A stretch of 64,000 nt of DNA, from NCBI GenBank assembly GCA_030637515.1, contig DAOWGM010000095.1, positions 8,171 to 72,170 of the forward strand, in the 5' to 3' direction. Shown piece by piece: positions 18,107 to 40,500 of this stretch (position 1 is its first letter; the number at the start of each line of letters is the position of its first letter). A program made the position numbers and the translations under genes. The notes beneath the pieces are model-generated. The model saw nothing but the letters and a program-made list of their open reading frames with translations. It searched no databases and was not told where the DNA came from. The stretch is from Bacteroidales bacterium. Its GTDB lineage: Bacteria > Bacteroidota > Bacteroidia > Bacteroidales > UBA12077.

Positions 18107-18117
18107 AAAAAAAAAAA
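18107..18117. repeat. A11 homopolymer (T11 on the coding strand of the pseudopilin operon)
   Basis: A run of 11 A at 18107-18117, about 43 nt upstream of the pseudopilin start codon (18064). Confidence 0.9.
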
Positions 18118-18129
18118 CCGATAGAATTG

Positions 18130-18156
18130 GTCATGCTGAGCTTGTCGAAGTATGAC
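18130..18156 (+). repeat. REP-like palindromic element (GTCATGCTGAG...TCGAAGTATGAC type)
   Basis: The sequence is gtcatgctgagcttgtcgaagtatgac. Related copies lie at 19540-19565, 19590-19614, 29728-29751, 29787-29833 and 37417-37467. Confidence 0.7.
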
Positions 18157-19539
18157 AATGCATGTAATTTTCAATATTTCTTTTTAATGATAAAGCTATC
18201 ATTTACAAAAGGATTTTTATCTTCGCAACTTTTTAATTTAATATAAAAATTGTGAAACGTACTTATCATCCTTATATTCCTATTCTTTATAATTTAGGAG
18301 TTCTCGAAAAAGGTTTTGTACAGGAAATATCTTCGAGCACTTTATACGAATGGAAAATCAAAGACTTTGATTCTCTCTATGGAATCGATCAGGTTACGAA
18401 GCATGTTCCTCAATTTGATTTGTTAAATGACTACATTACAAAAAAGAGTTTATCCAAAATAATAAATGCTACTTACAGAATTTATCATGTATATTCTAAA
18501 ATCTATTCTGAAATTAGATTTAAACGAACTAGTATTGAAAAATACCAGAAACAGATTGTTTGTACCATTGAAAATATTAAAGGAACAATTGGTTTTGATA
18601 AGGCTCTTAAAGCATTTCATATTACTTACCAACAATTTTACAGGTGGAAAAATAAAGTAAACTGTAGTCTGAACGAAAAATTTCTTTGCCGAAAAAGGCA
18701 TCCATTACAACTTTCAGTAAAAGAACTGAGAATAGTTAAATCTTATTTATTTAATCCTGAATATACATTCTGGCCAATAGCATCGATATATTATATGATG
18801 TTACGTAACAAACATGCCTTTATGAGTTTGACAACCTTTTATAAGTACGCCAGATTATTTAGTTTTAAACGACAAAAGCCTGATTGTAGAAATAAAAAAT
18901 ACTCTACAGGTATACGAGCAAGTAAACCTTTTGAAATTTTACATGCTGATGTCACAATTTTTAAACCCTTAGATAATACTAAAGTTTATATTTACTTTAT
19001 TGTTGATAATTTCTCAAGAAACATACTTGGATGGAAAGCTTCTTTAAAGCTAAGTGCCAAAACCTCATTCGAAAACTTACAGGAAGTTTACAATAAATAT
19101 AATATAAAAAGCAAAACTGGCGCAGTTCTAATGACCGATGATGGTAGTGAAAATAAAGCCGAAGTGGATGAGTATATTCAAAGCATTCATATGAAAAGAT
19201 TAATTGCTCAAAAAGATATTATTTATTCGAACAGTATGGTTGAATCTGCTTTTTACAGATTAAAATATCAATTTCTATTCACAAAAAATCTATCTGACTT
19301 TCCTGAAACATACAAGTATCTTGAAATTGCAATTCCTGAATACAAAAACAGACCACTTTCTGCTTTATTTGGGTTAACTCCCAACGAAGTTTGTGAAGGT
19401 GCAATTCCTGATATGAATGGTTTTAAACCACAAAAACAATATTCTAAAACCATTCGGATTATAGAAAACCAGCAATGTAAAGAATGTGAATAAACACATT
19501 CAAATTGAATTCCTTCCTATTCCCATAAGTTAAAAATTT
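18157..19539 (+). mobile_element. IS element (boundaries approximate)
   Basis: A single DDE transposase gene of opposite orientation interrupts an otherwise co-directional locus. I could not define clear terminal inverted repeats. The coordinates are simply the interval between flanking REP-like copies. Confidence 0.4.
18252..19493 (+). CDS. DDE transposase with integrase-core (rve) domain, IS3/IS481 superfamily
   Basis: LHADVTIFK (D), DNFSRNILGWK, MTDDGSEN (D) and NSMVESAFYRLK (E) fit the rve DDE triad order. It has a GTG start and an N-terminal HTH-like region. Confidence 0.8.
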   Translation: MKRTYHPYIPILYNLGVLEKGFVQEISSSTLYEWKIKDFDSLYGIDQVTKHVPQFDLLNDYITKKSLSKIINATYRIYHVYSKIYSEIRFKRTSIEKYQKQIVCTIENIKGTIGFDKALKAFHITYQQFYRWKNKVNCSLNEKFLCRKRHPLQLSVKELRIVKSYLFNPEYTFWPIASIYYMMLRNKHAFMSLTTFYKYARLFSFKRQKPDCRNKKYSTGIRASKPFEILHADVTIFKPLDNTKVYIYFIVDNFSRNILGWKASLKLSAKTSFENLQEVYNKYNIKSKTGAVLMTDDGSENKAEVDEYIQSIHMKRLIAQKDIIYSNSMVESAFYRLKYQFLFTKNLSDFPETYKYLEIAIPEYKNRPLSALFGLTPNEVCEGAIPDMNGFKPQKQYSKTIRIIENQQCKECE

Positions 19540-19614
19540 GTCATGCTGAGTTAATCGAAGCATAGGCAAATTCCCTAATTTTAAAAGCTCATCCTTCGAC
19601 ATGCTCAGGATGAC
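19540..19614. repeat. Pair of inverted REP-like elements
   Basis: gtcatgctgagttaatcgaagcatag (19540-19565) and its inverted relative catccttcgacatgctcaggatgac (19590-19614). Confidence 0.7.
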
Positions 19615-19683
19615 AAAATCCAAAACAACATGAATTGATTTCTTGCAAATCTTTTCTAATAAGCTATAAATACTTATTTTTGT

Positions 19684-19709
19684 AATGTTTCCGGATATCC
19701 GGAAACATT
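19684..19709. repeat. 26-nt perfect palindrome
   Basis: aatgtttccggatatccggaaacatt is its own reverse complement. Confidence 0.8.
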
Positions 19710-19857
19710 ATTTCGATTATAAACGTTATGGGCTGGGTACTTTTTATAACAAAAAAGGTCCAAGCAAAATGCTTGAACCAATTCTTTGTTTATATATTTT
19801 TTATCTAATCGCTTGCGCCAGTTGGGGGCTTCTTATATCTTGCTGTATATTCCTATT

Positions 19858-20502
19858 TTACCAAATTATAACCCAATAAATCATTTCATTACTTTTATCA
19901 CTTAATGCTGCACCTTTAGAGTAACCATGTTTCCAATTTTCAGGCATATATTCACCCTTCGTTAATTGTTTTTCCTCTAAAAATATTCCTGACTTAGAAT
20001 CTAAAACGTAAATAGTAAAATCTTCTGGAAGTTTACAAACTGTATTATTAGTTTGATGAGTCGAAAAGTTAGAAAAGTTAGGAATCGGCATAAAATCATC
20101 AAAATGTTCTTGTTCAATTAATTCAATTTTAATCTCACTATTATCTGGATATCCATAATTTTCAATTGTAGAAAACCTGTTTAAAACAAGAAGAGAATCA
20201 TTATTGGCTAAATACTTTGCAATGGCAAGATTCTCCAATCTTTTCTTTTCTTCTTCAAATGACACATCATCATAAGCAAATACTACTTTCAAATTATACT
20301 CTACATCTGGATTTAAACTCCATGTACAATTTAATCGTTTAGAATTACCCTTTTCTGGAAAAAAACTCACATATTTTGCAAAAACATTTTTCACTCGGTT
20401 ATAATCAATATCCTTTTCAAGAAACCAGAATTGGTCTTGATTTCTATTAGTACAAGAAAAACCTATAATTAAAGTAATAATTAATACAGTAATACTTTTC
20501 AT
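19858..20502 (-). CDS. Lipoprotein, candidate immunity protein for the upstream RHS toxin
   Basis: Lipobox-like MKSITVLIITLIIGFSC. It lies immediately downstream (33 nt) of the RHS gene, the canonical position for a cognate immunity gene. No recognisable family. Confidence 0.4.
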   Translation of the reverse strand: MKSITVLIITLIIGFSCTNRNQDQFWFLEKDIDYNRVKNVFAKYVSFFPEKGNSKRLNCTWSLNPDVEYNLKVVFAYDDVSFEEEKKRLENLAIAKYLANNDSLLVLNRFSTIENYGYPDNSEIKIELIEQEHFDDFMPIPNFSNFSTHQTNNTVCKLPEDFTIYVLDSKSGIFLEEKQLTKGEYMPENWKHGYSKGAALSDKSNEMIYWVIIW

Positions 20503-20535
20503 TTTTTTGTTTTCGTTATGCTTTAAAATTTATTT

Positions 20536-23500
20536 TTACTTTCCGTCAAAAAACAAATCTTCAGCCATTTTAATTATTTTCAAACCAGTATTGACAGCAC
20601 CTTGGGAACCTTCTTTCTTTTTCTTACCATAAGAGTAAGTCTTTTTCCTAATGTATTGTCTTGTCTGAACCCCAGGTGATAAAGCTTGTTTCATAATTTT
20701 TCCAAAGAGAGTCTTAGGTTGATCATCAACTCGAGCCAAATTCATTGACTCCACATCTGTCACTTGATTATCTTTTTTAGTATACATTGTCTTAACCTCA
20801 AGGGTTTTATCTCTAGAGGTAATTGTGTTAATATCTGGGGCTCCTTCTCCTTCACCGTAAACCGTTGTTACATCGGTCTCAACAACTTTCTCTTCTTTAG
20901 TTACTTTCTTATAACCATTATCATTCATCTTCTCTCCAATCTCTTCATCTGACATTTCCACTTTGTCTACATCTATCATTCCGTCCCCTTCATCTCTAAA
21001 GATGTAAACGTTATCTGGCTCATCAGTTTCTTCATATAGTAATAAATTACCTTCTTCTGTAAAATAAAAATCATCAGCATTCATTCCCATGAAATCAATA
21101 AATCTTATAGGATTATTATCAGCATAAACAAATGGTGATTGTTGAGAGAAATTTTCCGCAAGCGGGTCAAGTGTGTGGAATCTGCCTAAAGCAGCATCGT
21201 AGAATCTCGCCCCGTAATCGTACCAATCGAGCTTAGTACCATTAATTGCGTCGTCTTGCAACTCTTTACCATTGTATTTATATTTATTATCGGTTTGCGA
21301 ACTAAAAGCATATGCTGCAATAGACATTCCGAAAGGATAATAATGATTAACCTGCGATTTAGCTGCTATATTACTTGAATCGTAAAATGCAACACGTGTA
21401 TTTCCTAAATGATCTTTTAAGAAATATTCGTATGTAAATGTATTTGCATTTGCCACTTTAACCATTCCTTCCGATGTTAAAATATAATCCAACGAATCTT
21501 CATCGTAAACCAGATTTCCAATGTACTGTTTTATAATTCGGTTTGCATTAACCTTTGCAATTTTTGTGCCGTTGGCTGTATAAAAATATGAAATTGTATC
21601 GGTTCCTCCAATAATCTGTTCCGGTAAATTCAGGTAATTATAAATTACTGTATCAATTCCTTTGTTTCGGTCTTTTATCATATTGCCATTGGCATCGTAC
21701 TCGTAATCTACTGTATTTATTAAATCCTTAAAACCAACTGTATCTTCACCTATATCGCTTACGGTGTATAATTGGTTGGAATTATTGCTATTGTAATATG
21801 CATATGTCATATCGTCCATTACGGTCTCGCCTTCGCTATAACGTTTCAATTGCTTTATGTTACCGTTTTTGTCGTAATCAACTAATGCTAAATCAAAACT
21901 AAGGGTATTACACCATCCTGAATTAAATGTTTGGTGATCTGCCTCCTGTAAACGATTTACATTATCGTATTGAAATACATATGCCTGTGTTTCGTTGTAT
22001 TTATCATCAATCCAGCGCATAGCAGAAATATTACCGTTATACTGAGCTGTTCCGTTTTCTCCAATACTTGCGTTATCATAAGCTAATTCCATAGCAAACA
22101 GGTCTTTTGCCTGTCCTTCTTGCTGAAGATCATCCATTTTGTTAATTTGGGTTAACCAACCACGAATGTTGTATTCAAAATTTACATTCTGCAAATAGGT
22201 TGTATCCGAAGTTCCATGAATATCTTTTTGAATTAATTGCCCTAACTCATTGTATTCGTTATGGCTTATTAAAACTTTTGGATTACTGCCCACTTTATGA
22301 TACTCGTGAGTTAATCGCATGGCATGATCATATTCAAACCATTGTTTAATACTTATAGTATCGTTAAATGGAATTGATGTATTAAAAGCTTTTTCATGTA
22401 TTTGCCATGTTTCAAGAACATTACCCACAAAATCATATTTTGAAAGTACCAGATCAGATTTATTCAATAGAGGATTTTCTGAATAGGAACGCAATGGTCT
22501 GTACTTTTTATCGTAAAAAATAATACTTGTTATAAGACTATCGGTTCCCAAGATGCGGATTTTGCTTCCTGTTACCTGCCCTTTTACAGCTAAGTTAATT
22601 TCTGATATGGGATAATCGATATTATCGATGCTTTTGCAGTAAGTCTGCAAGGCTCCGTTATCATCGAAATTATAATTATCGTAATAGGTAGCCGTAAGAA
22701 TTATATCGTTAATACCTAATATAGGGAAACACTGATTGGTATATCCAAGATATGTTCCAGTATAATTATTATCAATACTTTCGGTAAATATGCTTGTCAT
22801 TTCAGAATTTAGATAATTCTGCATGTTTTCCTGTCCCGTATAAGTAATATCGTAATAAATACCTGTTATAACAGGACGATTAAAACGATCATATTTGGTA
22901 AACATCCATTCGCTGTTTCCCCGAAGGTTTCCATCCTGAGTTAATACCAAACGATCGCGACTATCGTAAACCATATAAACAGGATCGGCTCCCGGAATCT
23001 TTTTTGTGATCATTCGATTACGATAGTCGTATTTGTATGAATAACACAAATTACTGAGAATATCTGAATTTACTATTCCTGTGGTGATAATTAGATTTAC
23101 CGCCTTGGGAGGTATTACATAACGCAATAATCCAAAATCGTCGTACACATAACAGGTTTTAAGCTTTAAATCAGTGGTGTCTGATACTTTTAAAACAACT
23201 TGACCTAATTGATCTTTGTATTCGGCGCTCCATACTCCATTTTCGTCACGGGTTGCATTTTTATAGGTTGTAGCTCTTTCGTAATAACCTGAGTTTGTAA
23301 GATTGCCATTGGCATCTACTTCAAACAGAATAACTTCATCTGTATTGTTAGTTTCGTAGGCAAAATGAACAGATTTGTCTGAATCATATCCTCTTTGCGC
23401 TTGCCATGTTGTTCCCGGTGCTCCTTGTTGTAATACCCTATTTAACGGAGATTCCTCAAACTCAATGGTTGACCATGGCTTTGTATCCGATGCTCTGTCA

Positions 23501-23880
23501 GGTACTGAAGATGAATAAAACGATAATTGTTCACCTTCTGCATTTTCTCTGAAATAACCTCCTGCATAACCTGCAGCATAAGACAAAAACCTTTTCGACT
23601 CACGGCCATAACCATCATACGCAATATGCTGAACAATATCGTTCCCATCTGCACTTGCACCAACCTGAACACTCTGCACTGGGCGACCCAAACCATCGAA
23701 ATACTGAATTGATATTTGTTTTTCTGCTGATGTAGCTTCTGATTCTTCAACAGCTTCGGTGTAAACTCTGGTTATAATACTGTTATTCTGGCTGAATGCT
23801 GTTCCTGAGAATAAGGCAACTAAAACAAATGCTGTTGTGAATAAACGTACTTTTTTTGATAATATATCTCTCATAATCAT
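20536..23880 (-). CDS. RHS/YD-repeat toxin protein with Sec signal peptide and variable C-terminal domain
   Basis: Signal peptide ...VLVALFSGTAFSQ. It has many YD repeats (YDGYGRE, YDDFGLLRYV, YDSRDRL, YQYDNVNRL, YDKNGNI, YEYDANGNM). The RHS core end is DHLGNTRV...YYPFGM...YDYGARFYDAALGRFHTLDPLAE...NNPIRFIDFMGM. An unrelated Lys/Glu-rich tail of about 180 aa follows. Confidence 0.9.
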   Translation of the reverse strand: MIMRDILSKKVRLFTTAFVLVALFSGTAFSQNNSIITRVYTEAVEESEATSAEKQISIQYFDGLGRPVQSVQVGASADGNDIVQHIAYDGYGRESKRFLSYAAGYAGGYFRENAEGEQLSFYSSSVPDRASDTKPWSTIEFEESPLNRVLQQGAPGTTWQAQRGYDSDKSVHFAYETNNTDEVILFEVDANGNLTNSGYYERATTYKNATRDENGVWSAEYKDQLGQVVLKVSDTTDLKLKTCYVYDDFGLLRYVIPPKAVNLIITTGIVNSDILSNLCYSYKYDYRNRMITKKIPGADPVYMVYDSRDRLVLTQDGNLRGNSEWMFTKYDRFNRPVITGIYYDITYTGQENMQNYLNSEMTSIFTESIDNNYTGTYLGYTNQCFPILGINDIILTATYYDNYNFDDNGALQTYCKSIDNIDYPISEINLAVKGQVTGSKIRILGTDSLITSIIFYDKKYRPLRSYSENPLLNKSDLVLSKYDFVGNVLETWQIHEKAFNTSIPFNDTISIKQWFEYDHAMRLTHEYHKVGSNPKVLISHNEYNELGQLIQKDIHGTSDTTYLQNVNFEYNIRGWLTQINKMDDLQQEGQAKDLFAMELAYDNASIGENGTAQYNGNISAMRWIDDKYNETQAYVFQYDNVNRLQEADHQTFNSGWCNTLSFDLALVDYDKNGNIKQLKRYSEGETVMDDMTYAYYNSNNSNQLYTVSDIGEDTVGFKDLINTVDYEYDANGNMIKDRNKGIDTVIYNYLNLPEQIIGGTDTISYFYTANGTKIAKVNANRIIKQYIGNLVYDEDSLDYILTSEGMVKVANANTFTYEYFLKDHLGNTRVAFYDSSNIAAKSQVNHYYPFGMSIAAYAFSSQTDNKYKYNGKELQDDAINGTKLDWYDYGARFYDAALGRFHTLDPLAENFSQQSPFVYADNNPIRFIDFMGMNADDFYFTEEGNLLLYEETDEPDNVYIFRDEGDGMIDVDKVEMSDEEIGEKMNDNGYKKVTKEEKVVETDVTTVYGEGEGAPDINTITSRDKTLEVKTMYTKKDNQVTDVESMNLARVDDQPKTLFGKIMKQALSPGVQTRQYIRKKTYSYGKKKKEGSQGAVNTGLKIIKMAEDLFFDGK

Positions 23881-23885
23881 ATTTT

Positions 23886-26800
23886 TTATTGGTTACCCAA
23901 ATCAACAAGGTTAATTGATTTAATAATGGTATTGGAACCTCCATCTTTTGTTACAGTAAGCTTAATTTGATGTGATCCTAAAGTGAGTGTCGTAAGCGGA
24001 TCAGGTAATGTTGAATTAATAGTTCCATCATTTTTAAAATCCCAGGCCCAAGAATCGGGATCACCAGTTGAAAGATCCCAGAACTGTATAAAAGCTTTAC
24101 TTCTTATCACATTATAAGTAAATTCAAAATCAGCAATTATATCTGGTCGTCCATCCTGATAAATCAAGAATTCTTCCTCTACACCTCCTTTAATTATCTT
24201 AAAACTACCAGTTCTTGAATATGAATCATTATTATTAAGTAAGCGAATTTGAACATCTCCTGTAGATGAATCGAAACTTAGAATTCTTATCCACAGTTCG
24301 TCAGAATCAAGAGTCCAGTCACAAACATTACTAATAATATTGAATGTGTAATCTCCCCCATCGGACGATACATCACCAATGGTTGGATTTCCCTCACCTA
24401 AGTCGAAATCAGGCGCAAGCACCTCAATGGCTGTTGAAACACAATCGGTAATATTTGCATCCCCTTCTGCTCTTACGTAATAGGATTCATTTCCTGTTGG
24501 GTTAACTATAATAGAATTACCACTGCCAATTGAATCTGTTCCGCATCCTGATGTATACCACACCCATATTGCGCCAGTTCCTAAAGAGCCTCCGTTAACC
24601 GTAAGTGTAACCGGACAACTACTACCAACTATTAAATGACTTGCAGTAACAGAAGTTGGACCAACTGAGTTTATTTTAACATATTTACTCTTACTTCTTG
24701 AGAAGCATAAGTTAGATGCGGTTACTTTTACATATCCTGCTGCAGTTCCTGTTCTTATGCTAATAGCAGTATCCTGATCAGACTGAATTTCGGTTCCCGA
24801 AGGAACTGTCCAGCTATAATCAGTAGCTCCTTCCAGATTAGAAATAGAATAGGTTTTTATAACAGTAGGATCTATTTCTGTTGGTCCTGCAATTGAATCT
24901 ATATTTGCAATCTGCGATGTTACTGTCAGGGTTGCCACATTACTGTACACTGAACCACATTCTGTTACTTTACATCTATATTTGTTACCATTGTTTTCTC
25001 CAGCAGGATTTGAAATTGTGTAAAGACGAGATTCTGCACCAGAAATGTCAGAAAAGTTAAGTCCGTTATCGTTACTTAATTGCCACTGGTAAAAATAACT
25101 TAAAGTATCTCTTATAGCAGCTGAAACACCAAATGTTACAGATTCTCCTTCACAAACAGTATGATTTTCCGGATGTGAAAGTAAAAAAAGTAAGGTGTCC
25201 TTAGAAACGGATAAATGTTTATAAATACTTGAATCCCCACAAATAGTAGATACATTTACTGAAATATTACCTGCTGTTGAACCAAATTCAACTTCTATTG
25301 AGTCGGTTCCCTTTCCGTATATGATTTCTGAACCATACGGTACGATCCAGTTAAATGTAACATCATCTGATAAATAACGGGATGTATAAGTGTAAACCGA
25401 GCCCGGACATACTATACTATTTCCTTCCGGTTCATTAACCTTATAATCTAATATATCCGGTATTGTATGGTAATCTAATACTTTGGTTTCACTTTTTTCC
25501 CCACATTCATTAATTGAAAATACAGAAATTTCACCAGAAGTATCCCAATCACTATTTTCATAATTAAACTGAACTGTAATACTCGTATCATTTCTATCTA
25601 TAATTAATGCATCTCCTGTTACAATCCAGACATATTCAATTGCCCCTATAACCGAATCAATAGTAAAAGTTTCAATACTTTGCTTACAAAATGTTGAGTT
25701 TCCTGTGATGTTCTCAACAGGCAAAGGTGGAGTACAAACCGATTTGTCTAATCTTTCTGATATTAGATCATTGGTATAATAACAAACCTGGTAATTATAA
25801 ATGCTATTTGGTTGTACAACTGTATCAGTATATGTATTACTAGTTAAACCATGAGCTACCAGAATATAATTTCCATTATTATCTAATTTGTAAACATTGA
25901 AATTAACATCAGGAATATTATCCCAAGTCAGAATAATTTTATCGAAACTTGATTCGGCATCTAAATCAGTTATATCAGGTATTATCTCTTTCCATATATT
26001 ATACTCAAAAGATTTTAAAAGATTATACTCATTATCTTTAATTGTATTTAATCTTCCAAAACCATCATAATCGTAATAAGTAGTATTTCCGTTTGCATCG
26101 GTTTGAGTTTTGATACCGACCAAAGGTTTATGAGTATAAGTATTAACTAATGTACCAGATAGACTTTGGCGTATCGAATCATTTTTATTTTTAAAATCAG
26201 TTGGATAATCAGGATTTAATAATTGAATTTGATTAATAGTAGAAACTGGAATATCATTATATTCCAATCCTGTAATTTGAGCTTTAGGATAAATACTTTT
26301 AGAATCCCAAACATATGAAATCAGGTTCCCATTATATTGTTTAATGGTTAATGGTTTACCTTTACTATTATAATCTAAAAATTCAGCTTTGGTCTCAAGT
26401 GATTCATTATAATTAGCTTGCAATATCTTCGATGGCTTTATTAAATTGCCAAAATCATAATACTCTGTTCGTGATCTTTGCACACCAACACCATTTATTA
26501 AGCTTTGGGTTTCAATGGGAATATAAACATTTTTATTCCTAAGCTCTTCATGAAAATCATTTTGAGTTTCATCAAAATCTACTAAATTCTCCTTGTCTTC
26601 TAAATAAATATATTTTTTTTCTATGGTGTCATTCTCTACTAATTGCATTTCTTCTTTTAAAACCGTTGACATTGGATTTTCTAGGGTGTCTACGTAGTAA
26701 TACCTCGTTTCTGATATTATGGTATCTGACGGAGTCACTTTAATTGGATTCACAGGAGTTTTAGTTGAATCATAAAAATAATTATAAGTTTTTGATGTAA

Positions 26801-29324
26801 TTGGTAAAAGATAACCAGTCCCTATTAAATACCTTTTTGAAAAATATGTTGTTGATGAATAACTTCCGCCAGTACGCATAATGCTGTATCCCAATCCTTT
26901 AGCTTGATCGTCATTTATTGCTAACAGATTTTTTTGGCTTTCATTAAAATAATGATATTCATTTTTAGTTTCTCTGATTTTTTTATAAGCTTCGCCCTCC
27001 ATTTTATAAGTTACTTCAGAGATTAATTGCCCACGAGCAAAATCAAATTCTGAGAATGGAACTAAAGGAGGATGAATAGCTGTAATACCATCGGCTGTAG
27101 TCCAAATATCATCACCTGGTGATGTAAATGATCCGTATTGCTCATCAGGATAATTCTGAGATGTTACATATGATTTATTTTGGCGAGTTTTATCTCCTGT
27201 TTTGGTATTTGTGCTATAAATTTCAACATAACTATAACCTACAACATTTCCTTTTGTATATATTAAAGGCCTGGTCGAATTAACGGTTCTAATATACCCT
27301 CCAAGAATCTTAGAAGCATAACTGTCATATGAATTATAAAAAAAATAAGAGTAACCATAATTTGGATAATGAACCAAAGATCCGTTACTATAATTAAATT
27401 CTTTGATAGAAGCAATAGATGCATTGAGATCATTCTTTGTGTCTAAATTGCCATCCCTTGAGGTTATTTTTTTTATTCTAACCCCACCTACAATTCCATC
27501 CGATTGAATATACTCATTATCCCATGAAACTTTTACCATTACTAATCCAGGCTCATCACAACCTGAAGGATCTCTAGGATCAATCGAAATAGTATAAGTT
27601 CCTGGTGGTACCTCAACACTTGTTGTAAAATTGTCCTCTTTTAATTCCATTGAATAATACGCACCATCGTCATTAATGAATTTAATTCTAACAGTACAGT
27701 CTCCTTTTAAATATTGAACAGTGGTAATATCTACGGTAATTGAAGGTGAACAAAATGAGTTTATTTCTGTCGTTGTATCAGTTCCAATACCTGTGAGTGT
27801 ATATGATTGTCGGTCGTTAGCAATACCAAAGAACTGATTATCTTCGGTGTTTCGAGCAGTATTTTGCTCATATTCAAAAAACGCACTAGCTTTGGTTGGA
27901 TATAAAATCCGCCTAAGTATATTCGCTTGTGTAAATAACGTATCAGGATCTCTGTCTGCATCACCAAATACACTATAATTAAAACTACCCTCTGCACTAC
28001 TAGCGGTTCTCCATTTTACTTTATATTCAGGTTCCAAGGATGTATTTTCATCTTTCCCATTGTAATAACCCCAATGGTCCTTCCCAAGAGATAGTCTGTT
28101 TGGTAATCGAGTAGAGCTATAAGAAAACTCATATGGTTCCATTTCTGTTCCATCACTTCCAATTTCTGTTATGCTCTTTAATTTTAATCTCCATCCATAG
28201 TTTCCATAATCATAATTTAGAGGATCTATTTCTGAAGTAAGAGGGTCTGGATGCTCTGCTTCTGTATTTATGAATGCGTTACTAGTTTCAGTAAAATACT
28301 CATACTCAAATTTGAACTTCTTTATAATTATTTCTTCAGAGTTACTTTTATCATATATATTTATTTGGGTTAAATAAACGTCCCCTGATTTATCTTCACG
28401 TCCACCCGCATAAATAAATTCTACCCGTTCTTTAGTTGTTGTTATTTCTTCTATTCTTTTTGGTTGTTCTATATATGTTCGAGAATAATCTAATTGCATT
28501 GTCCCAACAGCATCACCCATAGTATAGCTTTTGGGAGATTGATTAAATGTAATAAGATCTGGCATATTTTCTTTGTATGAAAATGAAATCCCTTCGGTAT
28601 TATTAAGATTTTTCATAGATGTGATATACCAGCTCGAATTATTTACCACACGGTTGTTATTTATTTGTGCTCCAATGAATTCAGAAGAAACTTTTTCTAC
28701 AACACCAAACTTGTATCTGTTTCCTCTTGGATCAATAATTTCAAAGCTTGTAATTTCTTTCGATGAATTATCAATAGTTGTGATTATGCTATCATTATTA
28801 ATAGGTATTTTAGTAGCAGATTGATCTCTGTTTAAAATAAAAGATCCATTAAGATTATTGCAATTATAAAAGAATTTATCTGGTTTCGGATCTTTATCTC
28901 CATTAAAACATTCAAGAAAAAAATCATATGATTCTTCAGAGCTAATTGATAGTGGTAAAGGATAATTTAAATATCCGTTTACTTGATCATCTGCAATTCC
29001 ATTTATCGTTCGTGAAACAACACCACCATAATTTAAGGTCCATCCTAAACCAACAACGGATGCAAAGTCTTCAACTAAAACTCCGTTCACCGCATTATAT
29101 TTTAAATAGATAGGTAAACTTATTTCATCTCCTTCAATGGTGTAAATTGGAATGGTAATATCAACAGCACCAGTATAATAATTTACATTATTATTTCCGT
29201 ATACCTGCATTGAACTTGCATTTGGTGAAGGAGGAATAATGTCAGGCAATTCCTGTGATTTTACTAATTGGGTTGTGCCAATTAATAAAATGATAATAAT
29301 TGTAATTAACTTTTTCATAAACAT
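23886..29324 (-). CDS. Giant secreted protein with SpvB/TcB-N-like N-terminus and C-terminal Ig/PKD/BACON-like domains
   Basis: It has a signal peptide. YYTGAVDITIPIY...SLPIYLKYN...VGLGWTLNYGGVVSRTINGIADD resembles the SpvB/TcaC N-terminal pattern (..G..s.siPi...lsLsYnS...G.GWsl..sI.R). There is an isolated YD repeat, YYDYDGFGRLNTIKD. The C-terminal third has PKD-like, Ig-like (YQWQLSNDNG...YRCKV) and BACON-like repeats and a terminal PKD domain (WDFKNDG). It ends 5 nt before the RHS gene. Confidence 0.6.
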   Translation of the reverse strand: MFMKKLITIIIILLIGTTQLVKSQELPDIIPPSPNASSMQVYGNNNVNYYTGAVDITIPIYTIEGDEISLPIYLKYNAVNGVLVEDFASVVGLGWTLNYGGVVSRTINGIADDQVNGYLNYPLPLSISSEESYDFFLECFNGDKDPKPDKFFYNCNNLNGSFILNRDQSATKIPINNDSIITTIDNSSKEITSFEIIDPRGNRYKFGVVEKVSSEFIGAQINNNRVVNNSSWYITSMKNLNNTEGISFSYKENMPDLITFNQSPKSYTMGDAVGTMQLDYSRTYIEQPKRIEEITTTKERVEFIYAGGREDKSGDVYLTQINIYDKSNSEEIIIKKFKFEYEYFTETSNAFINTEAEHPDPLTSEIDPLNYDYGNYGWRLKLKSITEIGSDGTEMEPYEFSYSSTRLPNRLSLGKDHWGYYNGKDENTSLEPEYKVKWRTASSAEGSFNYSVFGDADRDPDTLFTQANILRRILYPTKASAFFEYEQNTARNTEDNQFFGIANDRQSYTLTGIGTDTTTEINSFCSPSITVDITTVQYLKGDCTVRIKFINDDGAYYSMELKEDNFTTSVEVPPGTYTISIDPRDPSGCDEPGLVMVKVSWDNEYIQSDGIVGGVRIKKITSRDGNLDTKNDLNASIASIKEFNYSNGSLVHYPNYGYSYFFYNSYDSYASKILGGYIRTVNSTRPLIYTKGNVVGYSYVEIYSTNTKTGDKTRQNKSYVTSQNYPDEQYGSFTSPGDDIWTTADGITAIHPPLVPFSEFDFARGQLISEVTYKMEGEAYKKIRETKNEYHYFNESQKNLLAINDDQAKGLGYSIMRTGGSYSSTTYFSKRYLIGTGYLLPITSKTYNYFYDSTKTPVNPIKVTPSDTIISETRYYYVDTLENPMSTVLKEEMQLVENDTIEKKYIYLEDKENLVDFDETQNDFHEELRNKNVYIPIETQSLINGVGVQRSRTEYYDFGNLIKPSKILQANYNESLETKAEFLDYNSKGKPLTIKQYNGNLISYVWDSKSIYPKAQITGLEYNDIPVSTINQIQLLNPDYPTDFKNKNDSIRQSLSGTLVNTYTHKPLVGIKTQTDANGNTTYYDYDGFGRLNTIKDNEYNLLKSFEYNIWKEIIPDITDLDAESSFDKIILTWDNIPDVNFNVYKLDNNGNYILVAHGLTSNTYTDTVVQPNSIYNYQVCYYTNDLISERLDKSVCTPPLPVENITGNSTFCKQSIETFTIDSVIGAIEYVWIVTGDALIIDRNDTSITVQFNYENSDWDTSGEISVFSINECGEKSETKVLDYHTIPDILDYKVNEPEGNSIVCPGSVYTYTSRYLSDDVTFNWIVPYGSEIIYGKGTDSIEVEFGSTAGNISVNVSTICGDSSIYKHLSVSKDTLLFLLSHPENHTVCEGESVTFGVSAAIRDTLSYFYQWQLSNDNGLNFSDISGAESRLYTISNPAGENNGNKYRCKVTECGSVYSNVATLTVTSQIANIDSIAGPTEIDPTVIKTYSISNLEGATDYSWTVPSGTEIQSDQDTAISIRTGTAAGYVKVTASNLCFSRSKSKYVKINSVGPTSVTASHLIVGSSCPVTLTVNGGSLGTGAIWVWYTSGCGTDSIGSGNSIIVNPTGNESYYVRAEGDANITDCVSTAIEVLAPDFDLGEGNPTIGDVSSDGGDYTFNIISNVCDWTLDSDELWIRILSFDSSTGDVQIRLLNNNDSYSRTGSFKIIKGGVEEEFLIYQDGRPDIIADFEFTYNVIRSKAFIQFWDLSTGDPDSWAWDFKNDGTINSTLPDPLTTLTLGSHQIKLTVTKDGGSNTIIKSINLVDLGNQ

Positions 29325-29380
29325 TTTTATATTAATATTTTAATGTATTCTTAAATGAATCTTTTGTATAAAAAGTGATC

Positions 29381-29658
29381 GAAAGTAGTTATTAATGGCG
29401 AGCTAAGAAATGTGTTTTATAACACATTCGTGTTATTGTAAAAAAGATAAGCGTATGGATTTTATATATAAACGCAAAATAGATTTAAGCTTCTGGAATT
29501 TTATTAACAAAACCATTTTCTTAAAACTTAGTGTTGACCTTTGTCTTATAAGTTGTGAACAAAATCCGTGATTGAGTAAATCTAAAAATATGAAATTAAA
29601 CGTAATTCAGACCCAAGGGTCTCTTTTTAAGAAATTTATATTAATTCTAAATAAAAAA
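29381..29658 (-). promoter_or_regulatory. Conserved leader/promoter region, copy B (upstream of the 1812-aa gene)
   Basis: It is collinear and of equal length with 50129-50406. Identical blocks are attaacaaaaccattttcttaa (29503-29524) and cgtatggattttata (29452-29466). Palindromes lie at 29409-29428 and 29609-29622. Confidence 0.55.
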
Positions 29659-29727
29659 TAAGAATACAAGCCAATTTTATTTTAACAAATTTTTTTAAGG
29701 ATTAAAATAGTTGTCAACCTTTCGACT

Positions 29728-29833
29728 ATCCTTCGACAGGCTCAGGATGACATTGCTCAAGATGACAACTGCCTTAAAATTAACATGTCACACTGAGTCT
29801 TGCCTGTCGGCAGACAGGTTTATCGAAGTGTGA
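29728..29833. repeat. Composite REP-like palindromic elements
   Basis: atccttcgacaggctcaggatgac (29728-29751) and gtcacactgagtcttgcctgtcggcagacaggtttatcgaagtgtga (29787-29833, with inner palindrome cctgtcggcagacagg). The reverse complement of the second is nearly identical to 37417-37467. Confidence 0.7.
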
Positions 29834-29876
29834 TTATAAGTTTAAAAGAAAAAACAATTCTTACCCCGATCCTAAA

Positions 29877-29895
29877 GGGAAAATTGATTTTTCCC
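29877..29895 (-). terminator. Possible intrinsic terminator after the 432-aa gene
   Basis: Hairpin gggaaaa-ttgat-ttttccc. On the minus strand it is followed by only a short TTT, so it is weak. Confidence 0.3.
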
Positions 29896-29916
29896 GATGT
29901 TTTTGAAATAACAGAA

Positions 29917-31215
29917 TTATTCGAGCCATTTAATATGTTTCAAATTAATTGGTTTTTCAATCAGGTTAATTCCTGCAAAATCGGATGGTAATTTTGAATA
30001 ATCTACAGTAGCATTTAAAAGGTGATTTTCGTACAAAGAGGATGCTGTTTTTAAAGTAAAACCCTCGCAAAACAAGCTACCATAAATTGCACCTTTGTGC
30101 TGAATAAATCCATTGCAATAAACTATACCATAAACCTCTGCAGTTTCTTTAATGTGCATTTTTAAAGGAGTTTTAGAGACTGAAGCTGAAGAATATAATA
30201 AAACACCCCCTGCAAGTACTGTATTTTTACCAAGTGTAATTGAAACTCCAGATTCGGGTATTGATTTTAAAACTCCTATAAAAGATGGATATTTGAATTT
30301 ACATGCATTTCCTATTTTTATTTTTTCGGTTGCAAGAACCTGAACCTGCCCTGAAAAATCATTTTCAAAAATAACTGAAGGAGCAATAATGATCACATCT
30401 TTTAATATGCAGTTTGCTGAAATAGTAATTTCATTATCAAATTTGAAAATAACATTCCCGCTTGCATTAATTCCTTGAAGTTTTGTTATTTCATCAGAAT
30501 ACACAATTAATGAATTATTATTGAATGAATTTGCTATTTCATTTTTTGCTAATTGTGCTGTTAATTCAATAATACTATCTGACTTATCAATAGTTCCATT
30601 AATTAAATTTTCTAAATATTTTAATTTTTCAGGAATTAAGGTAGGTAGCTCATTGTTGCTTTGCTGAGCTATACCATTTACTAATTCACGATTTTGGTAT
30701 CCTTGTCCTTCTATGTATGCTCTTTTTATACCTAGTTTGGGTAAATAGCAAGTTCCTTTTAACAAGGTATTTCCACTTATAGATAAATACTTTTTTTTGT
30801 CAGCAAGATATAAAGCAATATCTTCCTTTTTGCCTGAATGATCACCTAAAAGAGCAATTTTCCTGGCTTTGTAATTGTGCCTATTGGATTCGGAATAAAT
30901 TAAATCATAAACGCCCCAATGTCTTTTTTCCAAAATAACTGAATCGTAATTATTCCCATATAAATTTATTTCTGTGTGAGTGTCATAATTTAAAAGTTCA
31001 GGATTTTTACATACGAGATTAAAACCTGATTTAACATTAGATACAACCTGTTCCTGCAATACCTGTCTGTCAATATATGAATTATGGATGTATGTATACA
31101 AAATAAGCATTCCACTCAATACAGCCACAATTAATGATATGAGTAAAGCATAATATAATGCTCCACCATTGACCTTAAGAAAAATACTATTCCGGATTCT
31201 TGATTTCAGGTTCAT
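29917..31215 (-). CDS. Membrane-anchored protein, possibly PilX/GspK-like minor component with beta-helix-like C-terminus
   Basis: The N-terminal NGGALYYALLISLIVAVLSGMLILY resembles PilX-N-type anchors and lacks Glu+5. The C-terminal half has a repetitive beta-strand pattern (GNVIFKFDNEITISANCILKDVIIIAPSVIF...). Tentative. Confidence 0.3.
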   Translation of the reverse strand: MNLKSRIRNSIFLKVNGGALYYALLISLIVAVLSGMLILYTYIHNSYIDRQVLQEQVVSNVKSGFNLVCKNPELLNYDTHTEINLYGNNYDSVILEKRHWGVYDLIYSESNRHNYKARKIALLGDHSGKKEDIALYLADKKKYLSISGNTLLKGTCYLPKLGIKRAYIEGQGYQNRELVNGIAQQSNNELPTLIPEKLKYLENLINGTIDKSDSIIELTAQLAKNEIANSFNNNSLIVYSDEITKLQGINASGNVIFKFDNEITISANCILKDVIIIAPSVIFENDFSGQVQVLATEKIKIGNACKFKYPSFIGVLKSIPESGVSITLGKNTVLAGGVLLYSSASVSKTPLKMHIKETAEVYGIVYCNGFIQHKGAIYGSLFCEGFTLKTASSLYENHLLNATVDYSKLPSDFAGINLIEKPINLKHIKWLE

Positions 31216-35121: not shown

Positions 35122-37038
35122 TTAACCTATAATTGTTGGTTTGATTAAAACATTTAATTTGGCCTTGGAATTACTTTTTGTTTTTGAACTAAAAAGCCAT
35201 TTAATAATTGGGATTCTTGCTAAAAGAGGCAAGCCTGATCCTGATTCATTTATCTGTTGTTGCTCAAGTCCGCCAAGAAGAACAACATCTTCATTTTTAA
35301 CTCTGATTGTTGATTTAAACTCTTTATTTCGTTTTCCGGGAGGTGCTCCTTCACCTAATGAATTAGACAAATCAAAATCGGATTGTTTTACCGAAATTTC
35401 AAGTGTTATCTGATTATCACCAGAAACTACAGGTCTGATAATTATTTCTAAATCAGCATCAACGGATTTATATTCAGAATAACTATTTAATGATGGATTT
35501 TGAGTTCCGTAATACTGGCTTCGTTCTTCTTTATAATATTTTGTCTGACCAATTTTCAGGTTGGCTTTGTGGCCATTCATGGTAGAAAGCTTTGGAGTAC
35601 TCTTAATATCCAGAATTCCTTCGTCTTCCAGAGCTTTTAATGTCAGATAAAAATTAGGAGTTACATTACCTAAATTTACCCAACCAAAACCATCGAACTT
35701 ATTAATGATACTGTTTACCGATTCGGAACCCAGTGTCATATCAACCGAAGGGAAAACCTGACCTTTTGTTGTAGTTGGAGCTTCACCTAATCCTGCCGTA
35801 ATTCCAGTGGAAATAGTATGCGATTTAGTTACATCAATTATAATAATTTCAATTAAAATTACCGGAACAGGCTTATCGATAAGATTAATAAAATTTTCTA
35901 CCTGACGGATTTTATTAGAAGCTCCTGAAAGAAAAACACTGTTTAGCTCAACAAATTCTTTTATCTCCACATTTTTAACCATTTCTTTAGGTAGAATATG
36001 CATTATTGAATCAACAGTTCGGTGTTGTAACTGAACAACTTTGTATTCATTGATCTCATTAATACTTTTACCTCCAATCAGATAAATATCATTTAGGTTT
36101 TTATATGTATATTCTGAGCCGCTTAAGACATAATCCAGAAACTCTTCAAAAGTAACTCCTTCAACATTCAGTGAGATTTCTCCTTTTAGCTCCGAAGCAA
36201 TAAAATATCCAATTCCCAATTGACCTGCAATAACTTCAATCAAATCCAATTTTTGAGCCTTGTTAGCATAAATACTTATGCTATCAACACTTTCTGTAGA
36301 AATCTGAATTCCCTTTCGGCGAAAAGATTCCACATTTACTTGTTTACCACGATTGTAATTGCTTATAGATAAGTTCTGATTATCATCAGCTTCGGCTTTT
36401 TTAATAATGAAAATATTGTCACTGGATTTTTGTGCAATTAAGCCATTGGTAAACGCCAGTTTATCAATAGCTTTACTGAAAGGCATATTTTGAATGTAGC
36501 CTTTGATTTTTTGTGAATCCAGTCCGGGAGATAATATAATATTGTAACCCGTTACACGAATTATTTCTCGCATAGCAGCATTTATAGGCTCGTTATCGTA
36601 ATCAATAGTAATCAAATCGGTTTCCCGATTGTATAAAACTTTGGTAGTAGTTGATTGAACCTTTCCGGTTCCTTTAATGGTTATTATATTTCCTATAAAA
36701 TTAATATCTAAACCAAACTGATCGTTTAAAAACAAGAGTATGTCGGCAACTTTAACATCCGAAAAATTATTGGTAACCATTATTTGTAGTGTAGGATCCA
36801 CATCGATGTTTACTCCGGAATTGTTGGCTACACCACGCAAAAATTCCTGAATTTGAACATTACCAACAGAAATGTTCACTTTTTCGTTCAGTTTTGGAAT
36901 TTCTATGGTTTTTTGATCAAGTATCTGCCTAAACGTAAGGGTAGAGTCCTGAGCCATAAGATGAGTCGTAACAAACAAAACAATAAATAGAGCTGAAACA
37001 GACTTTTTAAGGTATGACATTTTTATATTTATTTTCAA
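35122..37038 (-). CDS. Secretin (GspD/PilQ family outer-membrane channel)
   Basis: It has a signal peptide and N-domain repeats. The C-terminal secretin signature is VVLLGGLEQQQINESGSGLPLLARIPIIKWLFSSK. Confidence 0.85.
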   Translation of the reverse strand: MKINIKMSYLKKSVSALFIVLFVTTHLMAQDSTLTFRQILDQKTIEIPKLNEKVNISVGNVQIQEFLRGVANNSGVNIDVDPTLQIMVTNNFSDVKVADILLFLNDQFGLDINFIGNIITIKGTGKVQSTTTKVLYNRETDLITIDYDNEPINAAMREIIRVTGYNIILSPGLDSQKIKGYIQNMPFSKAIDKLAFTNGLIAQKSSDNIFIIKKAEADDNQNLSISNYNRGKQVNVESFRRKGIQISTESVDSISIYANKAQKLDLIEVIAGQLGIGYFIASELKGEISLNVEGVTFEEFLDYVLSGSEYTYKNLNDIYLIGGKSINEINEYKVVQLQHRTVDSIMHILPKEMVKNVEIKEFVELNSVFLSGASNKIRQVENFINLIDKPVPVILIEIIIIDVTKSHTISTGITAGLGEAPTTTKGQVFPSVDMTLGSESVNSIINKFDGFGWVNLGNVTPNFYLTLKALEDEGILDIKSTPKLSTMNGHKANLKIGQTKYYKEERSQYYGTQNPSLNSYSEYKSVDADLEIIIRPVVSGDNQITLEISVKQSDFDLSNSLGEGAPPGKRNKEFKSTIRVKNEDVVLLGGLEQQQINESGSGLPLLARIPIIKWLFSSKTKSNSKAKLNVLIKPTIIG

Positions 37039-37203
37039 AACCTGAAATATTATTCGTTAATAACAATTTTTTACTCACAAAATGGGGATTCAAAATTATC
37101 ATTTTTATTGGAAATAGAAAACGTTTTGTAAGGCTAAGTATAAAAATATTAGTTATTTAGATTGGGAATAAGTAATTTTAAAATTCTAATTTAAATTAAC
37201 CTC

Positions 37204-37467
37204 ATTCCGATCTTTGTACCGGAATCGATTAAAACAAAAAAAGTGTAGTCCCAAAAACTTTCGGGAACGCTACGCTTAACATTTATAATATTTTTTATTT
37301 ATTTGTTCCTACTCTATTGCACGCGTTACAAACGCGTGCGAGCTGGATTATTGAAAAATTTAATTTAAATACTTTGTTACAAAAGCACGCGTAACATACG
37401 CGCGCGAGCTGGGGTACTTCGACACACTCGATAAACCTGTCTGCCGACAGGCAAAACTCAGTGTGAC
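37204..37467. repeat. Cluster of at least five small GC-rich palindromic (REP-like) elements
   Basis: The elements are attccg...cggaat (37204-37225), gtagtcccaaaaactttcgggaacgctac (about 37245-37273), gcacgcgttacaaacgcgtgcgagctgg (37319-37346), its relative gcacgcgtaacatacgcgcgcgagctgggg (37385-37414), and the 29787-type element in inverted orientation (37417-37467). Confidence 0.7.
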
Positions 37468-37511
37468 ATTGCTCAATATGACAGAACAGTTTTAAAGTAT
37501 ACATTTAAATG

Positions 37512-37545
37512 AAATAAAAAGGCACAAGTCATTCTGCCTTGTGCC
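37512..37545 (-). terminator. Rho-independent terminator after the 1720-aa gene
   Basis: On the minus strand, ggcacaag-gcagaatga-cttgtgcc forms an 8-bp GC-rich stem followed by TTTTTATTT, 30 nt past the stop codon. Confidence 0.65.
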
Positions 37546-37574
37546 AATTAATTACTATTTAATTTAGATGTAAG

Positions 37575-40500
37575 TTAATTTATAATAACTCCTCCTCCTG
37601 GAGGTCCTGTACCTCCACTGCCCCCAGAGCTTCCTGTACCAGAACCATCTAAATTAATCCAAAAATCACACCGTGTAATTCCATTAAGGTATATTAATTG
37701 TAATTGGCCTTCATGATTACCAACTTCCGCAGGATTATAACTTACATTTAAAGGTACAGAAGTCCCTGCACTAACATCCAGTAAGAATGGACCTCCTGCA
37801 CTAAAATAGCCTGTTTCAGAAGATACTACAAAAGGTCTCATTTCCAGAACGCCTGTTCCCGGATTATTTATGGTAATTACTTTACTCACAGTTGTTCCAA
37901 TCTCAGTTTCTCCAAGGTCCAATGAAACTCCATCATTTACTTTAACACCATCAATAAGAACTTCAAATTCAGGTTTGCCTTCAGGAATATTACACCCTTT
38001 ACTTCTGGTTTCTCCTTCATTTTCAAGGGTAGCAATAAACGTATGTGAACCTTCATAGCTATCCCATACACGAAGTTCCTGTTTAAAGGTAACAGTTGTT
38101 AAGGGAGGTATCATTTTTGTAAGGCTGGCTTGAGCATCCAGGACTCTGAAATTCACCCTACAGTTTGCAGGAACTCTTTTATCCTTGTTTTTTACATTAA
38201 TTGTCAGTGTTGCAATATTGGTTGTATTATTGAAACTTACAGAAAGGCCACTTGTAAATGTGCAATTCTCAATAGCCCTTGCATATCCATAATCATGGCT
38301 GCTAATCTTTTTAAAGCCATCAGGTGTTTCCTTATAAACAGCTATTAACTTTCCTCCAGCATCATAGGTATATTTGGTTGCAATATTGTTATTATCCAAA
38401 ATTGCAGTTACGGCTCCTGTATGCTGATCATATACATATGACTGCATAGAAGCATCGATAGGATGCACGCGAAAATCGTCAACCCATGCAAAATTAGCAC
38501 TGCCAATACAATCTACATAAACTTTTCTGCTTTCCCCTGCAGGTATTTCTCCAGTAATTGTAAATAAATACCATTGTCCAAATTTTAAACAATTATCTGG
38601 ATTAAAATGTTCTGTTTCTGAAGATACAATAACTAATTTGGCGTGTGAAGTATTCTCATGAACCCATACAGAAGCTTGAAATTTGCGTGAAACTGTAGAT
38701 TCATTTAGTATAATAACTTCAGGACCCCCAGTATTACCAGATGATTCTTCTGTTCCCTGTATTCTTACCAAGAAATTTCCTGTATGCGCATTTATCGACG
38801 ATTGAGGATAATTCATATATTCCATATAATCTGAGACTTCACTTGATAAATAAAGGGAGTTCTTAATTTCTTTACCAAAAATTTCTCCGCTAAAATCAAT
38901 TTTATCTTCTCTGGATACAGCTTCTTCAAAACCAGTATATGAATATTGTCTATAAGATGCATTTGAAATTGTTGCAATTGCTTTTTTATTATTTACATCC
39001 ATTTTAGTTGATGAATAATCTCCATTTATATCTCTAATTTCTAATGGTATTGAATTCTTATTATATTCTTTTATTTCTGTAACCAATTGCCACCCATCAA
39101 CATCAGAATCTATAACATTAAAGTTATCCTCAATTTCTTCCATTGTGTTATATTTTGAAAACTGAGAAGAGCTATATGTTCCATCAGGATTTAGATCTCC
39201 TTTCCATATAAACTTCTTATTTACTCTGTAGATATCACTAATGGTTCCATCTTCTATATATTCTTCAAAAGACTCATAGTAATTACGATATGTCCAGTCT
39301 TTTTCCCATTTTGTAATATTAGCATTAATAACTTTATAGTTTGAGCCATCCAATATCTTAGTCAGGTTGGCCACATTTTGAGAAATCATATTTTTATAAG
39401 ATGAATTTTCAGCCTTTATACCCATGTTAGAGTATACTTTATATGCTGGTAAATAATCAACTATAAATGTTTTTCCGGAGATATTTTCCCAAGGTAATGG
39501 ATCGTTCTTATACTTTTTACTTAAAACCCGCCCTGTTAAGAAGTCAAAATTTAAATTACTAACAGTAGTTTTCCTACCATTACTTTTATATTCTACAGAA
39601 CTAAGTATATTTGGATACATTATTTTTGTAGTTCTGAACAATCGATCTGTGGAATATGAAGCACCCCACAAACACCTTTCAAAATAAATTGAGCCTTCAG
39701 TAAATATACCCTGATCATCTGAAATAGCATTTGTATAATTATATTTTACAGATTGTACTAAATCATTATTATAATATTTTTTAATAGTTTTTAATGATCC
39801 AATACTATTGGTATTTACTTTTATTAAATAATTTCTAATTTTAACTAAAATACCTTCAACAAACCCGTCATGTATATTATTAGGAATACATGTTACCATG
39901 TCATAATGTGGCATTTCATATTCAAATTGAGATTTAGATAAATAATTCCCACTTTCATCATTATTGCTTAAGACAGTTACCTTTCCATACAATACAGGGG
40001 TATTAGGGTAGTTTAATAATGATTGTTTTTTATAAACATCATATAGGTCAATATCACTTCTATTATAACTTGGCTCAATAGAACATGCACCTGAACTTTG
40101 TCCATTAGCTGTTCCATCTTTTGTATAAATGTATTTTTTTGACATTTTTGTGCCAATTCCATCGTTAACAATTATTTCACTTACTCGGGCATTGCCTCCT
40201 TTAAGGTCTTGTGGTAGACTATACCCAGATACATTTGAATACTTATCTCTTTCCTGTTCTATTTCAATAACAGATCCAATTGGTGTAGTTATTTTGGTTA
40301 AGGCCCATTGCGTACCACTTCCTGTTGGAATCCTATTTGTATTTGATCCTCCAATCTTATACATACCCCAACCATCCCAATAATCTAGGTTATAATTAGG
40401 ATTTGCTCCATATTCAAAAACAAAATCAGGCAGTAATTTTGTGTCATTTATTCCTCTTGTACTAATACATTGAAGAGATAGCTTTCCATTTCCGTTAAAA

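Follow-up and report, generated by a model that had tools for sequence, protein, structure and literature searches.

The secretion operon and its two toxin cassettes

The window, i.e. the whole stretch of 64,000 nucleotides analyzed here, holds a complete type II secretion/type IV pilus-like operon on the minus strand (15997-52792). Its conserved genes, all on this strand, encode a prepilin-like protein (52370-52792), a prepilin peptidase (51848-52366), a GspE/PilB-type secretion ATPase (50415-51848; Pfam T2SSE, E = 1e-128) and a secretin (35122-37038). The secretin gene is followed by six conserved genes, the last of which encodes a 432-aa protein (29917-31215), and further on by two pseudopilin-like genes (17696-18064 and 17142-17621) and a T2SSF gene (15997-17142). 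The closest public record to the window is the Bacteroidales metagenome assembly GCA_023136955.1.

The operon is split at two sites. Cassette A (37039-50414) lies behind the ATPase gene (site A) and cassette B (18065-29916) behind the 432-aa gene (site B), and each of them starts with one copy of a non-coding element. The first gene after copy A encodes a BACON/RHS toxin of 1884 aa that has an HExxH region at its C-terminus (44413-50067, minus strand). Copy B is followed by a giant gene for an 1812-aa protein with PKD_6, RHS repeat and SpvB-like domains (23886-29324, minus strand) and then by the gene of a 1114-aa DUF6443/RHS toxin (20536-23880). All genes around the element are located on the minus strand. 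In most Bacteroidota relatives, including L049, the secretin gene begins within ~10-60 nt after the ATPase gene, and in L053 to L057 the 432-aa gene is directly followed by the pseudopilin and T2SSF genes. In close relatives (ATPase identity 70-83%), one or both of these junctions are likewise interrupted by giant genes, the cargo being a different one. The presence of such differing giant genes at these two sites suggests that the giant RHS-type proteins may be cargo of the secretion machine. Our literature searches on this association of operon and toxins and on DUF6443 returned nothing relevant.

In the 1884-aa RHS protein, the HExxH motif (LGHELFHAF) is located after the RHS core. Its gene is followed by a 161-aa ORF (43909-44394) with no Pfam match, and the C-terminus of the protein and this ORF likely represent a toxin tip/immunity pair. 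An equally sized 161-aa ORF is found behind the related cargo gene of L050. In L048, the position of the giant first cargo gene is taken by a mere 44-aa ORF (11837-11971) resembling the N-terminus of the L005 giant protein, which indicates either a truncated gene or an assembly frameshift; the upstream element is still kept there. The edges of both cassettes carry REP-like GC-rich short repeats in otherwise AT-rich DNA, e.g. TGCCTGTCGGCAGACAGGTTTATCGA and GCTCAGGATGACA (29728-29832, 37423-37483, 19591-19615 and 18129-18141), one of which gave a sub-threshold match to the Rfam RT-6 RNA (21 bits vs 46.7). Between such repeats, the distal end of cassette B carries a plus-strand gene (18252-19493) whose 413-aa product has an rve integrase core domain, and in L055 a similar rve gene is located just before the secretin gene. 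Elsewhere in the window, a defence-island-like gene run on the minus strand (7473-14719) encodes a protein kinase, GmrSD_N-domain and PAPS-reductase-domain proteins, a 1076-aa AAA ATPase and a DUF4007 protein.

Two collinear copies of a non-coding element

Copy A (50124-50410, minus strand) was delimited by MAFFT alignment and occupies nearly all of the 347-nt gap between the ATPase gene and the 1884-aa RHS/BACON toxin gene; the nhmmer match spans this whole intergenic region (50068-50414). Copy B (29376-29662, minus strand), delimited by alignment and nhmmer, is located directly upstream of the 1812-aa SpvB-like/RHS/PKD giant gene. The copies are collinear and identical in 219 of 306 MAFFT columns (72%), with z = 30.7 for the global alignment over shuffles. 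Between the end of the element and the ATG codons (29324 and 50067, both minus strand) lie 51-56 nt, and here identity falls to 25/58 (43%), which is background for such AT-rich DNA. The giant proteins behind copies A and B share no N-terminal homology and show only scattered weak domain matches (best E = 6e-4). Conservation is therefore specific to the non-coding region. A sequence-only reading of this DNA had described collinear homologous regions before both toxin operons, followed by coding regions that are non-homologous at their 5'-ends, and had restricted the conservation to the non-coding part; our alignments agree with it in these respects. Copy B is preceded by ~255 nt that have no counterpart at copy A (29663-29916) and contain GC-rich REP-like repeats recurring at other cassette edges.

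Two blocks are perfectly conserved between the copies, as the sequence-only reading had reported (22/22 and 15/15). The 22-nt block TTAAGAAAATGGTTTTGTTAAT is found on the minus strand at 50251-50272 (A) and 29503-29524 (B) and nowhere else (0.02 occurrences expected). It forms a near-dyad, TTAAGAAAA-TGG-TTTTGTTAA, of which TGTTWAT alone is kept in other genomes. The 15-nt block TATAAAATCCATACG (A 50199-50213, B 29452-29466, minus strand) is preceded by TGCGTTTAT, the counterpart of TACGGTTAT in L003, L005 and L048. No conserved small ORF or leader peptide was found, and the short ORFs differ between copies A and B.

Each copy contains two palindromes. Hairpin 1 of copy A, AGACCTAAAGGTCT (AGACC-N4-GGTCT), is located 45 nt past the ATPase stop codon (50357-50370) and corresponds to AGACCCAAGGGTCT in copy B (29609-29622). 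In both copies it scores as terminator-like on the plus strand only. It is not conserved in L003, L005 or L048, and at the corresponding position of L058 a clear terminator is located on the sense strand. Most simply, hairpin 1 belongs to the upstream gene, as its terminator or as a hairpin at its 3'-end. The symmetric substitutions described for it do exist, but they carry little weight because they fall on loop-closing positions of a 5-bp stem, and the hairpin is not conserved in related genomes. The ~190 nt between hairpin 1 and the second palindrome contain the conserved blocks TTTTGTTnAnAAC, TGTTWAT and TRCGKTTAT, which could be further binding sites. This second palindrome, hairpin 2, is a dyad found at the same offset in both copies, with A:T in copy A where copy B has G:C, as the sequence-only reading had stated. 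In copy A (50152-50181; -16.6 kcal/mol as RNA), arms of 13 nt (50152-50164 and 50169-50181) extend the core ATGTT-TTAT-AACAT (minus strand, 50160-50173). In copy B (29409-29428; -7.8 kcal/mol as RNA), the core is GTGTT-ATAA-AACAC (minus strand, 29412-29425).

A core module shared by cassette heads of related genomes

Seven more intergenic regions from related metagenome assemblies head giant-gene cassettes at the same two sites and carry a common core module. An nhmmer profile built from the two copies gave no convincing match outside the window. Manual and MAFFT alignment, partly hand-anchored in this very AT-rich DNA, identified the regions after the ATPase gene in L003 (= L006), L005 and L048 as homologous to the element, and a profile built without L048 detects L048 with E = 3e-18. 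The regions of L062 and L050 (site A) and of L052 and L058 (site B) are unmatched by the profile, and in these a short core was seen on inspection.

The core consists of a 14-bp dyad, RTGYT-N4-AACAY, in which ATG-N8-CAT is almost invariant, directly followed by ATTTG, ATTTC or (A/G)TTTT, and of a box, (A)ATA(A)C-TAnnTTC(G/A). The 5-N4-5 geometry of the dyad is present in nine of nine cassette-heading regions, which represent about seven lineages, several of them not independent. The distance from dyad to box is 24 nt in five regions (copies A and B, L052, L058 and L062; in L062 this holds if the box is read as TAAGTTTC, TTTCG being 1 nt farther from the dyad than in copy A), 34 nt in L005 and L048, 38 nt in L003, and 37 nt in L050. 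In the window and ~1.1 Mb of fetched loci, a core profile finds these nine cassette-head sites only, and the dyad has no other occurrence in the window. A wider regulon was rejected, since neither the pilin and secretin genes nor any others in the window and these loci are preceded by dyad or core. A generic dispersed repeat was rejected as well: there are two copies in the window, and in the fetched loci the element was found at cassette heads only. In JGI metagenome contigs, neither the exact 22-mer nor a degenerate three-anchor pattern fitting all five A-type copies had any match. Plasmids and phages gave nothing by blastn in distant mode. In viral contigs, a degenerate core pattern had 26 matches, which we attribute to chance because none of them has the dyad.

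In the neighbouring ATPase gene, four-fold degenerate sites have reached saturation (28-50% identity). Since the intergenic regions nevertheless align, with z of 8-15 among L003, L005 and L048 and of about 4 for copy A against these, the element evolves under constraint. This constraint, together with the core before cassettes in other genomes, supports the general idea of the sequence-only reading that a shared cis-regulatory element heads both toxin modules.

A predicted promoter with an operator-like dyad

The consensus of Bacteroidetes sigma-A promoters is TTTG at -33 and TAnnTTTG at -7, with the box at -12 to -5 (PMC9723704). A promoter of this type is predicted on the minus strand in both copies. 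In copy A (50158-50128), TTTG (50158-50155) and TATTTTCG (50135-50128) are separated by a 19-nt spacer, and in copy B (29410-29380) a spacer of the same length separates TTTC (29410-29407) from TACTTTCG (29387-29380). Each of these boxes fits the consensus in 5 of 6 positions, and C occupies position 7 in all copies. The related regions have the boxes TAATTTCA, TAATTTCG and TAAATTCG. The -33-like element 19 nt before the box is TTTG in copy A and L062, TTTC in copy B, and TTTT in L052 and L058. Matches of 5/6 to the consensus are not enriched in the window; the weight of the promoter assignment comes from conservation across genomes. The shared C at position 7 may point to a different sigma factor or to a non-promoter function. 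A perfect TTTG-N19-TACTTTTG at 53226-53256 (minus strand), directly upstream of a tRNA gene (53126-53214), provides an internal calibration, showing that the Bacteroidetes promoter type is in use in this organism. Two other promoter types were rejected: matches in a scan for E. coli-type sigma-70 promoters were no more frequent than in shuffles, and no GG-N10-GC arrangement fitting a sigma-54 promoter was seen by eye.

With the box placed at -12 to -5, transcription is predicted to start ~5 nt past it, near 50123 (A) and 29375 (B). The homology between the copies runs to CACTT and stops no more than about 3 nt from the predicted start. Thus, the duplicated or conserved part would lie entirely upstream of the start, and the 51-56 nt UTR would belong to each cargo. 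Reported 5' UTR lengths have medians of 24-32 nt and means of 52-65 nt (PMC9723704). Relative to the predicted start, the dyad is centred at about -43.5 in five sequences and 10-14 nt farther in the other four, and its 3' half touches the -33 element. By analogy, such a geometry would be that of a class II activator or of an occluding repressor.

We therefore propose the following arrangement along the minus strand. A short hairpin after the upstream gene is likely a weak or bidirectional terminator. Beyond the next ~190 nt with their conserved blocks, the 14-bp dyad would serve as operator abutting the TTTG-like -33 element, and 19 nt past this element would follow the TAnnTTCG box, which is one base off the sigma-A -7 consensus. 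The start would be located ~5 nt past the box, leaving an untranslated region that is private to each cargo gene. A dimeric DNA-binding regulator presumably binds the dyad. With the dyad centre near -43.5 and in contact with the -33 element, a single protein could then control both cassettes jointly. No gene for a regulator turned up in the window. Among the relatives, L004 has a gene for a cNMP-binding (Crp/Fnr-like) protein near the operon (5368-5946), and LytTR-type regulator genes are located near the operon in L048 (171-2021) and L049 (7788-8945). These regulators are candidates for recognizing the dyad or the recurring TGTT motifs. That the element is a duplicated promoter-plus-operator module which heads and co-regulates both cassettes has, in our judgement of the sequence comparisons, about an even chance of being correct. 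Most likely, it is an uncatalogued example of a familiar and fairly ordinary kind of regulatory element in an unusual setting.

Alternative explanations

We consider it unlikely that the element is transcribed as a long structured leader or attenuator, starting at a more distant upstream promoter or reached by transcripts that read through from the ATPase or 432-aa gene, in which hairpin 2 and the following U-rich tract would act as a terminator/antiterminator or as the site of an RNA-binding protein. Over the nine sequences, 86% of the cells of a 9-bp helix are paired and 5 cells show symmetric double changes, a number reached by 1 of 500 shuffles. The change that had been called compensatory is thus part of a real tendency to keep the symmetry. 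As RNA, hairpin 2 of copy A is very stable (z = -7.6), TTT follows hairpin 2 in seven of nine sequences, the whole of copy A folds better than its shuffles (z = -3.8), and the co-oriented upstream genes make read-through plausible. However, five of the nine sequences give hairpin 2 a marginal RNA stability (-2.7 to -5 kcal/mol), and the whole fold of copy B is not unusual (z = -1.5). For five homologues, RNAalifold returned three local hairpins with a total of only -10 kcal/mol over 461 columns and a positive covariation term (+0.48). A conserved multi-helix structure with compensatory changes was not recovered in this way, the symmetric changes being confined to hairpin 2. The uncompensated mismatches favour neither strand: G.T in L003 can wobble on the gene-sense strand only and C.A in L048 and L058 on the opposite strand only, so that the RNA of neither strand is consistently paired. 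The 3' flank ATTTGTGG is identical in copy A and L062 though their 5' arms differ, which indicates conservation for something besides pairing and fits the -33 element. In the comparison with Rfam that the sequence-only reading had suggested, no family reached its gathering threshold (best permissive scores 21-28 bits vs thresholds of 47-115). Furthermore, a leader should extend to the vicinity of the start codon, but the homology stops ~55 nt short of the ATG. Hairpin 2 was rejected as an intrinsic terminator on account of its AT-rich stems and its marginal energy in five of nine sequences, and it was not called by the terminator scan. Another transcript, which we regard as quite improbable, would be a small RNA of ~225 nt encoded on the plus strand antisense to the toxin genes, starting near CGAAARTAGTTATT, with hairpin 2 first, and ending at the T-run of hairpin 1. 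This would agree with the strand on which hairpin 1 is terminator-like in both copies, with a homology spanning nearly exactly the region from the CGAAARTAGTTATT block to just beyond the T-run, and with a plus-strand TTTG 19-21 nt upstream of TAGTTATT in both copies. TAGTTATT, however, fits the consensus in 4 of 6 positions and is without the terminal G, and the relatives have no terminator equivalent on the plus strand (none in L048 and L062, a sense-strand one in L058). On the plus strand, copy B does not fold better than its shuffled versions (z = -0.4), and the weak plus-strand Rfam score (GibS, 28 bits vs a threshold of 115) is noise. A plus-strand small RNA fits the two copies of the window, but not the relatives. 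Of the two mechanisms put forward by the sequence-only reading, a promoter with a dyad operator fits better than a structured 5' UTR or riboregulator, because the homology stops at the predicted start, the spacing is fixed at 24 nt in five sequences, the RNA hairpin is weak in most relatives, the fold of copy B is unremarkable and no Rfam family matches. The term leader, under which the element had been introduced, is therefore probably wrong. On balance, a DNA-level dyad bound by a dimeric regulator seems favoured over an RNA hairpin.

The similarity of the copies might also be mainly historical, a cassette with its upstream region having been duplicated or moved, or homogenized by gene conversion, and then subjected to neutral decay, which would imply no co-regulation other than by an ordinary promoter. 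The two copies resemble each other far more (z = 30.7) than either resembles its counterparts at the same site elsewhere (z at most about 5), and in the genome represented by L005 and L052 the regions at the two sites are dissimilar and have the core alone in common. The cargo of copy B (SpvB-like N-terminus, then DUF6443/RHS toxin) is homologous to the site-A cargo of L003, L005 and L062, which suggests that a whole cassette moved to site B with its head; the cargo of copy A is homologous to that of L050. In the simplest history, a canonical cassette would have reached site B of this lineage together with its head, by being copied or moved. At site A, the resident head would then have received new cargo, the breakpoint lying close to the transcription start. 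The REP-like repeats and the rve integrase gene at the edges of cassette B would agree with such events, and a 22-nt perfect run at 72% identity is no worse than mildly unlikely (p about 0.07, an estimate). As the main explanation we nevertheless give history a low probability, as the same blocks are constrained between genomes with saturated synonymous sites, the core of dyad and box is kept at both sites in other genomes, and the homology ends at a functional-looking boundary and not at a random point. Moreover, it accounts for the origin of the copies and not for their function, and it is compatible with the promoter-operator explanation. Very improbable in our view is that the element represents the conserved terminus of a cassette that is mobile or recombines site-specifically, resembling an integron site or a transposon end, or an invertible promoter. 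It does lie at the upstream border of the insertions, which occupy two hot spots of a single operon, the cargo downstream differs between genomes, and cassette B contains an integrase-family gene. Yet the best flanking inverted repeats have 31-34 nt with 71-74% complementarity in AT-rich DNA, no matching element is present at the other cassette ends, plasmid, phage and viral collections gave no copies, no recombinase gene is consistently adjacent, and the cassette-free operons give no target-site duplication to compare. An inverton was rejected because near-perfect flanking inverted repeats are lacking. In L001 and L002, other assemblies of the same species, the element has the same orientation. 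The suggestion that the element is the 5' handle of a recombining cassette is supported in part by its position at the insertion edge and by the exchanged cargo; no recombination site or mobile-element end was found.

Implications

If the promoter-operator explanation is correct, one regulator controls two unrelated giant toxin cassettes via a shared operator-promoter, and the element gives a concrete handle on when these uncultured bacteria deploy their toxins. More speculatively, the dyad-promoter module may be the dedicated switch and exchange point of a cargo system, in which a Bacteroidales clade would export giant RHS-type toxins via a type II secretion/type IV pilus-like machine, insert their genes as cassettes at two fixed positions of the operon encoding this machine, both behind one kind of regulator-controlled head, and thereby exchange cargo by recombination while the regulation stays as it is; we hold this to be unlikely. 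The genomic setting matters more than the element itself: in several related genomes, RHS-type toxin cassettes recur at two sites within the operon of a secretion machine. The machine may be the export route of these toxins, and in that case Bacteroidota would have a new way of secreting polymorphic toxins. Furthermore, the element can be used as a sequence tag for finding such cassette heads.

Comparison with known systems

With Bacteroidetes sigma-A promoters the element shares the TTTG-like motif, the 19-nt spacer and the TAnn-TT-G box, and the implied 5' UTR of 51-56 nt is within the reported range (PMC9723704). It differs from them in the C at position 7 of the box (TAnnTTCG/A), found in every copy, and in a conserved stretch that is longer than the -7 box (AATAACTAnTTTCG). 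Like intrinsic terminators, hairpin 1 has a short GC-containing stem beside a T-run directly after the upstream gene; in contrast to these, its stem has 5 bp, the T-run is on the strand opposite to the genes, and the structure is not conserved in L003, L005 and L048.

Class II activator sites of the Crp/Fnr family in E. coli are exemplified by the FNR box, TTGAT-N4-ATCAA centred at -41.5. The dyad of the element has the same 5-N4-5 form and is likewise located just upstream of, and touching, the -35-equivalent element, and the L050 variant ATGAT-N4-ATCAT fits the FNR half-sites in 4 of 5 positions each. In contrast, the half-site of the element is ATGTT, its centre is about two bases off as judged from the predicted start, and no Crp/Fnr gene is linked here except for the cNMP-binding protein near the L004 operon.

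Similar to the cis-regulatory leaders and small RNAs in Rfam, the element is conserved, intergenic, upstream of an operon and equipped with local hairpins, but it scores below all thresholds and has a weak consensus fold. Integron Pc promoters and RHS polymorphic-toxin loci resemble it as conserved non-coding heads before variable cargo, the head being kept in close relatives. Unlike integron Pc arrays, the cassettes described here come without an integron integrase or attC-like sites, and whereas RHS and other polymorphic-toxin loci exchange C-terminal toxin tips, here whole giant genes are exchanged.
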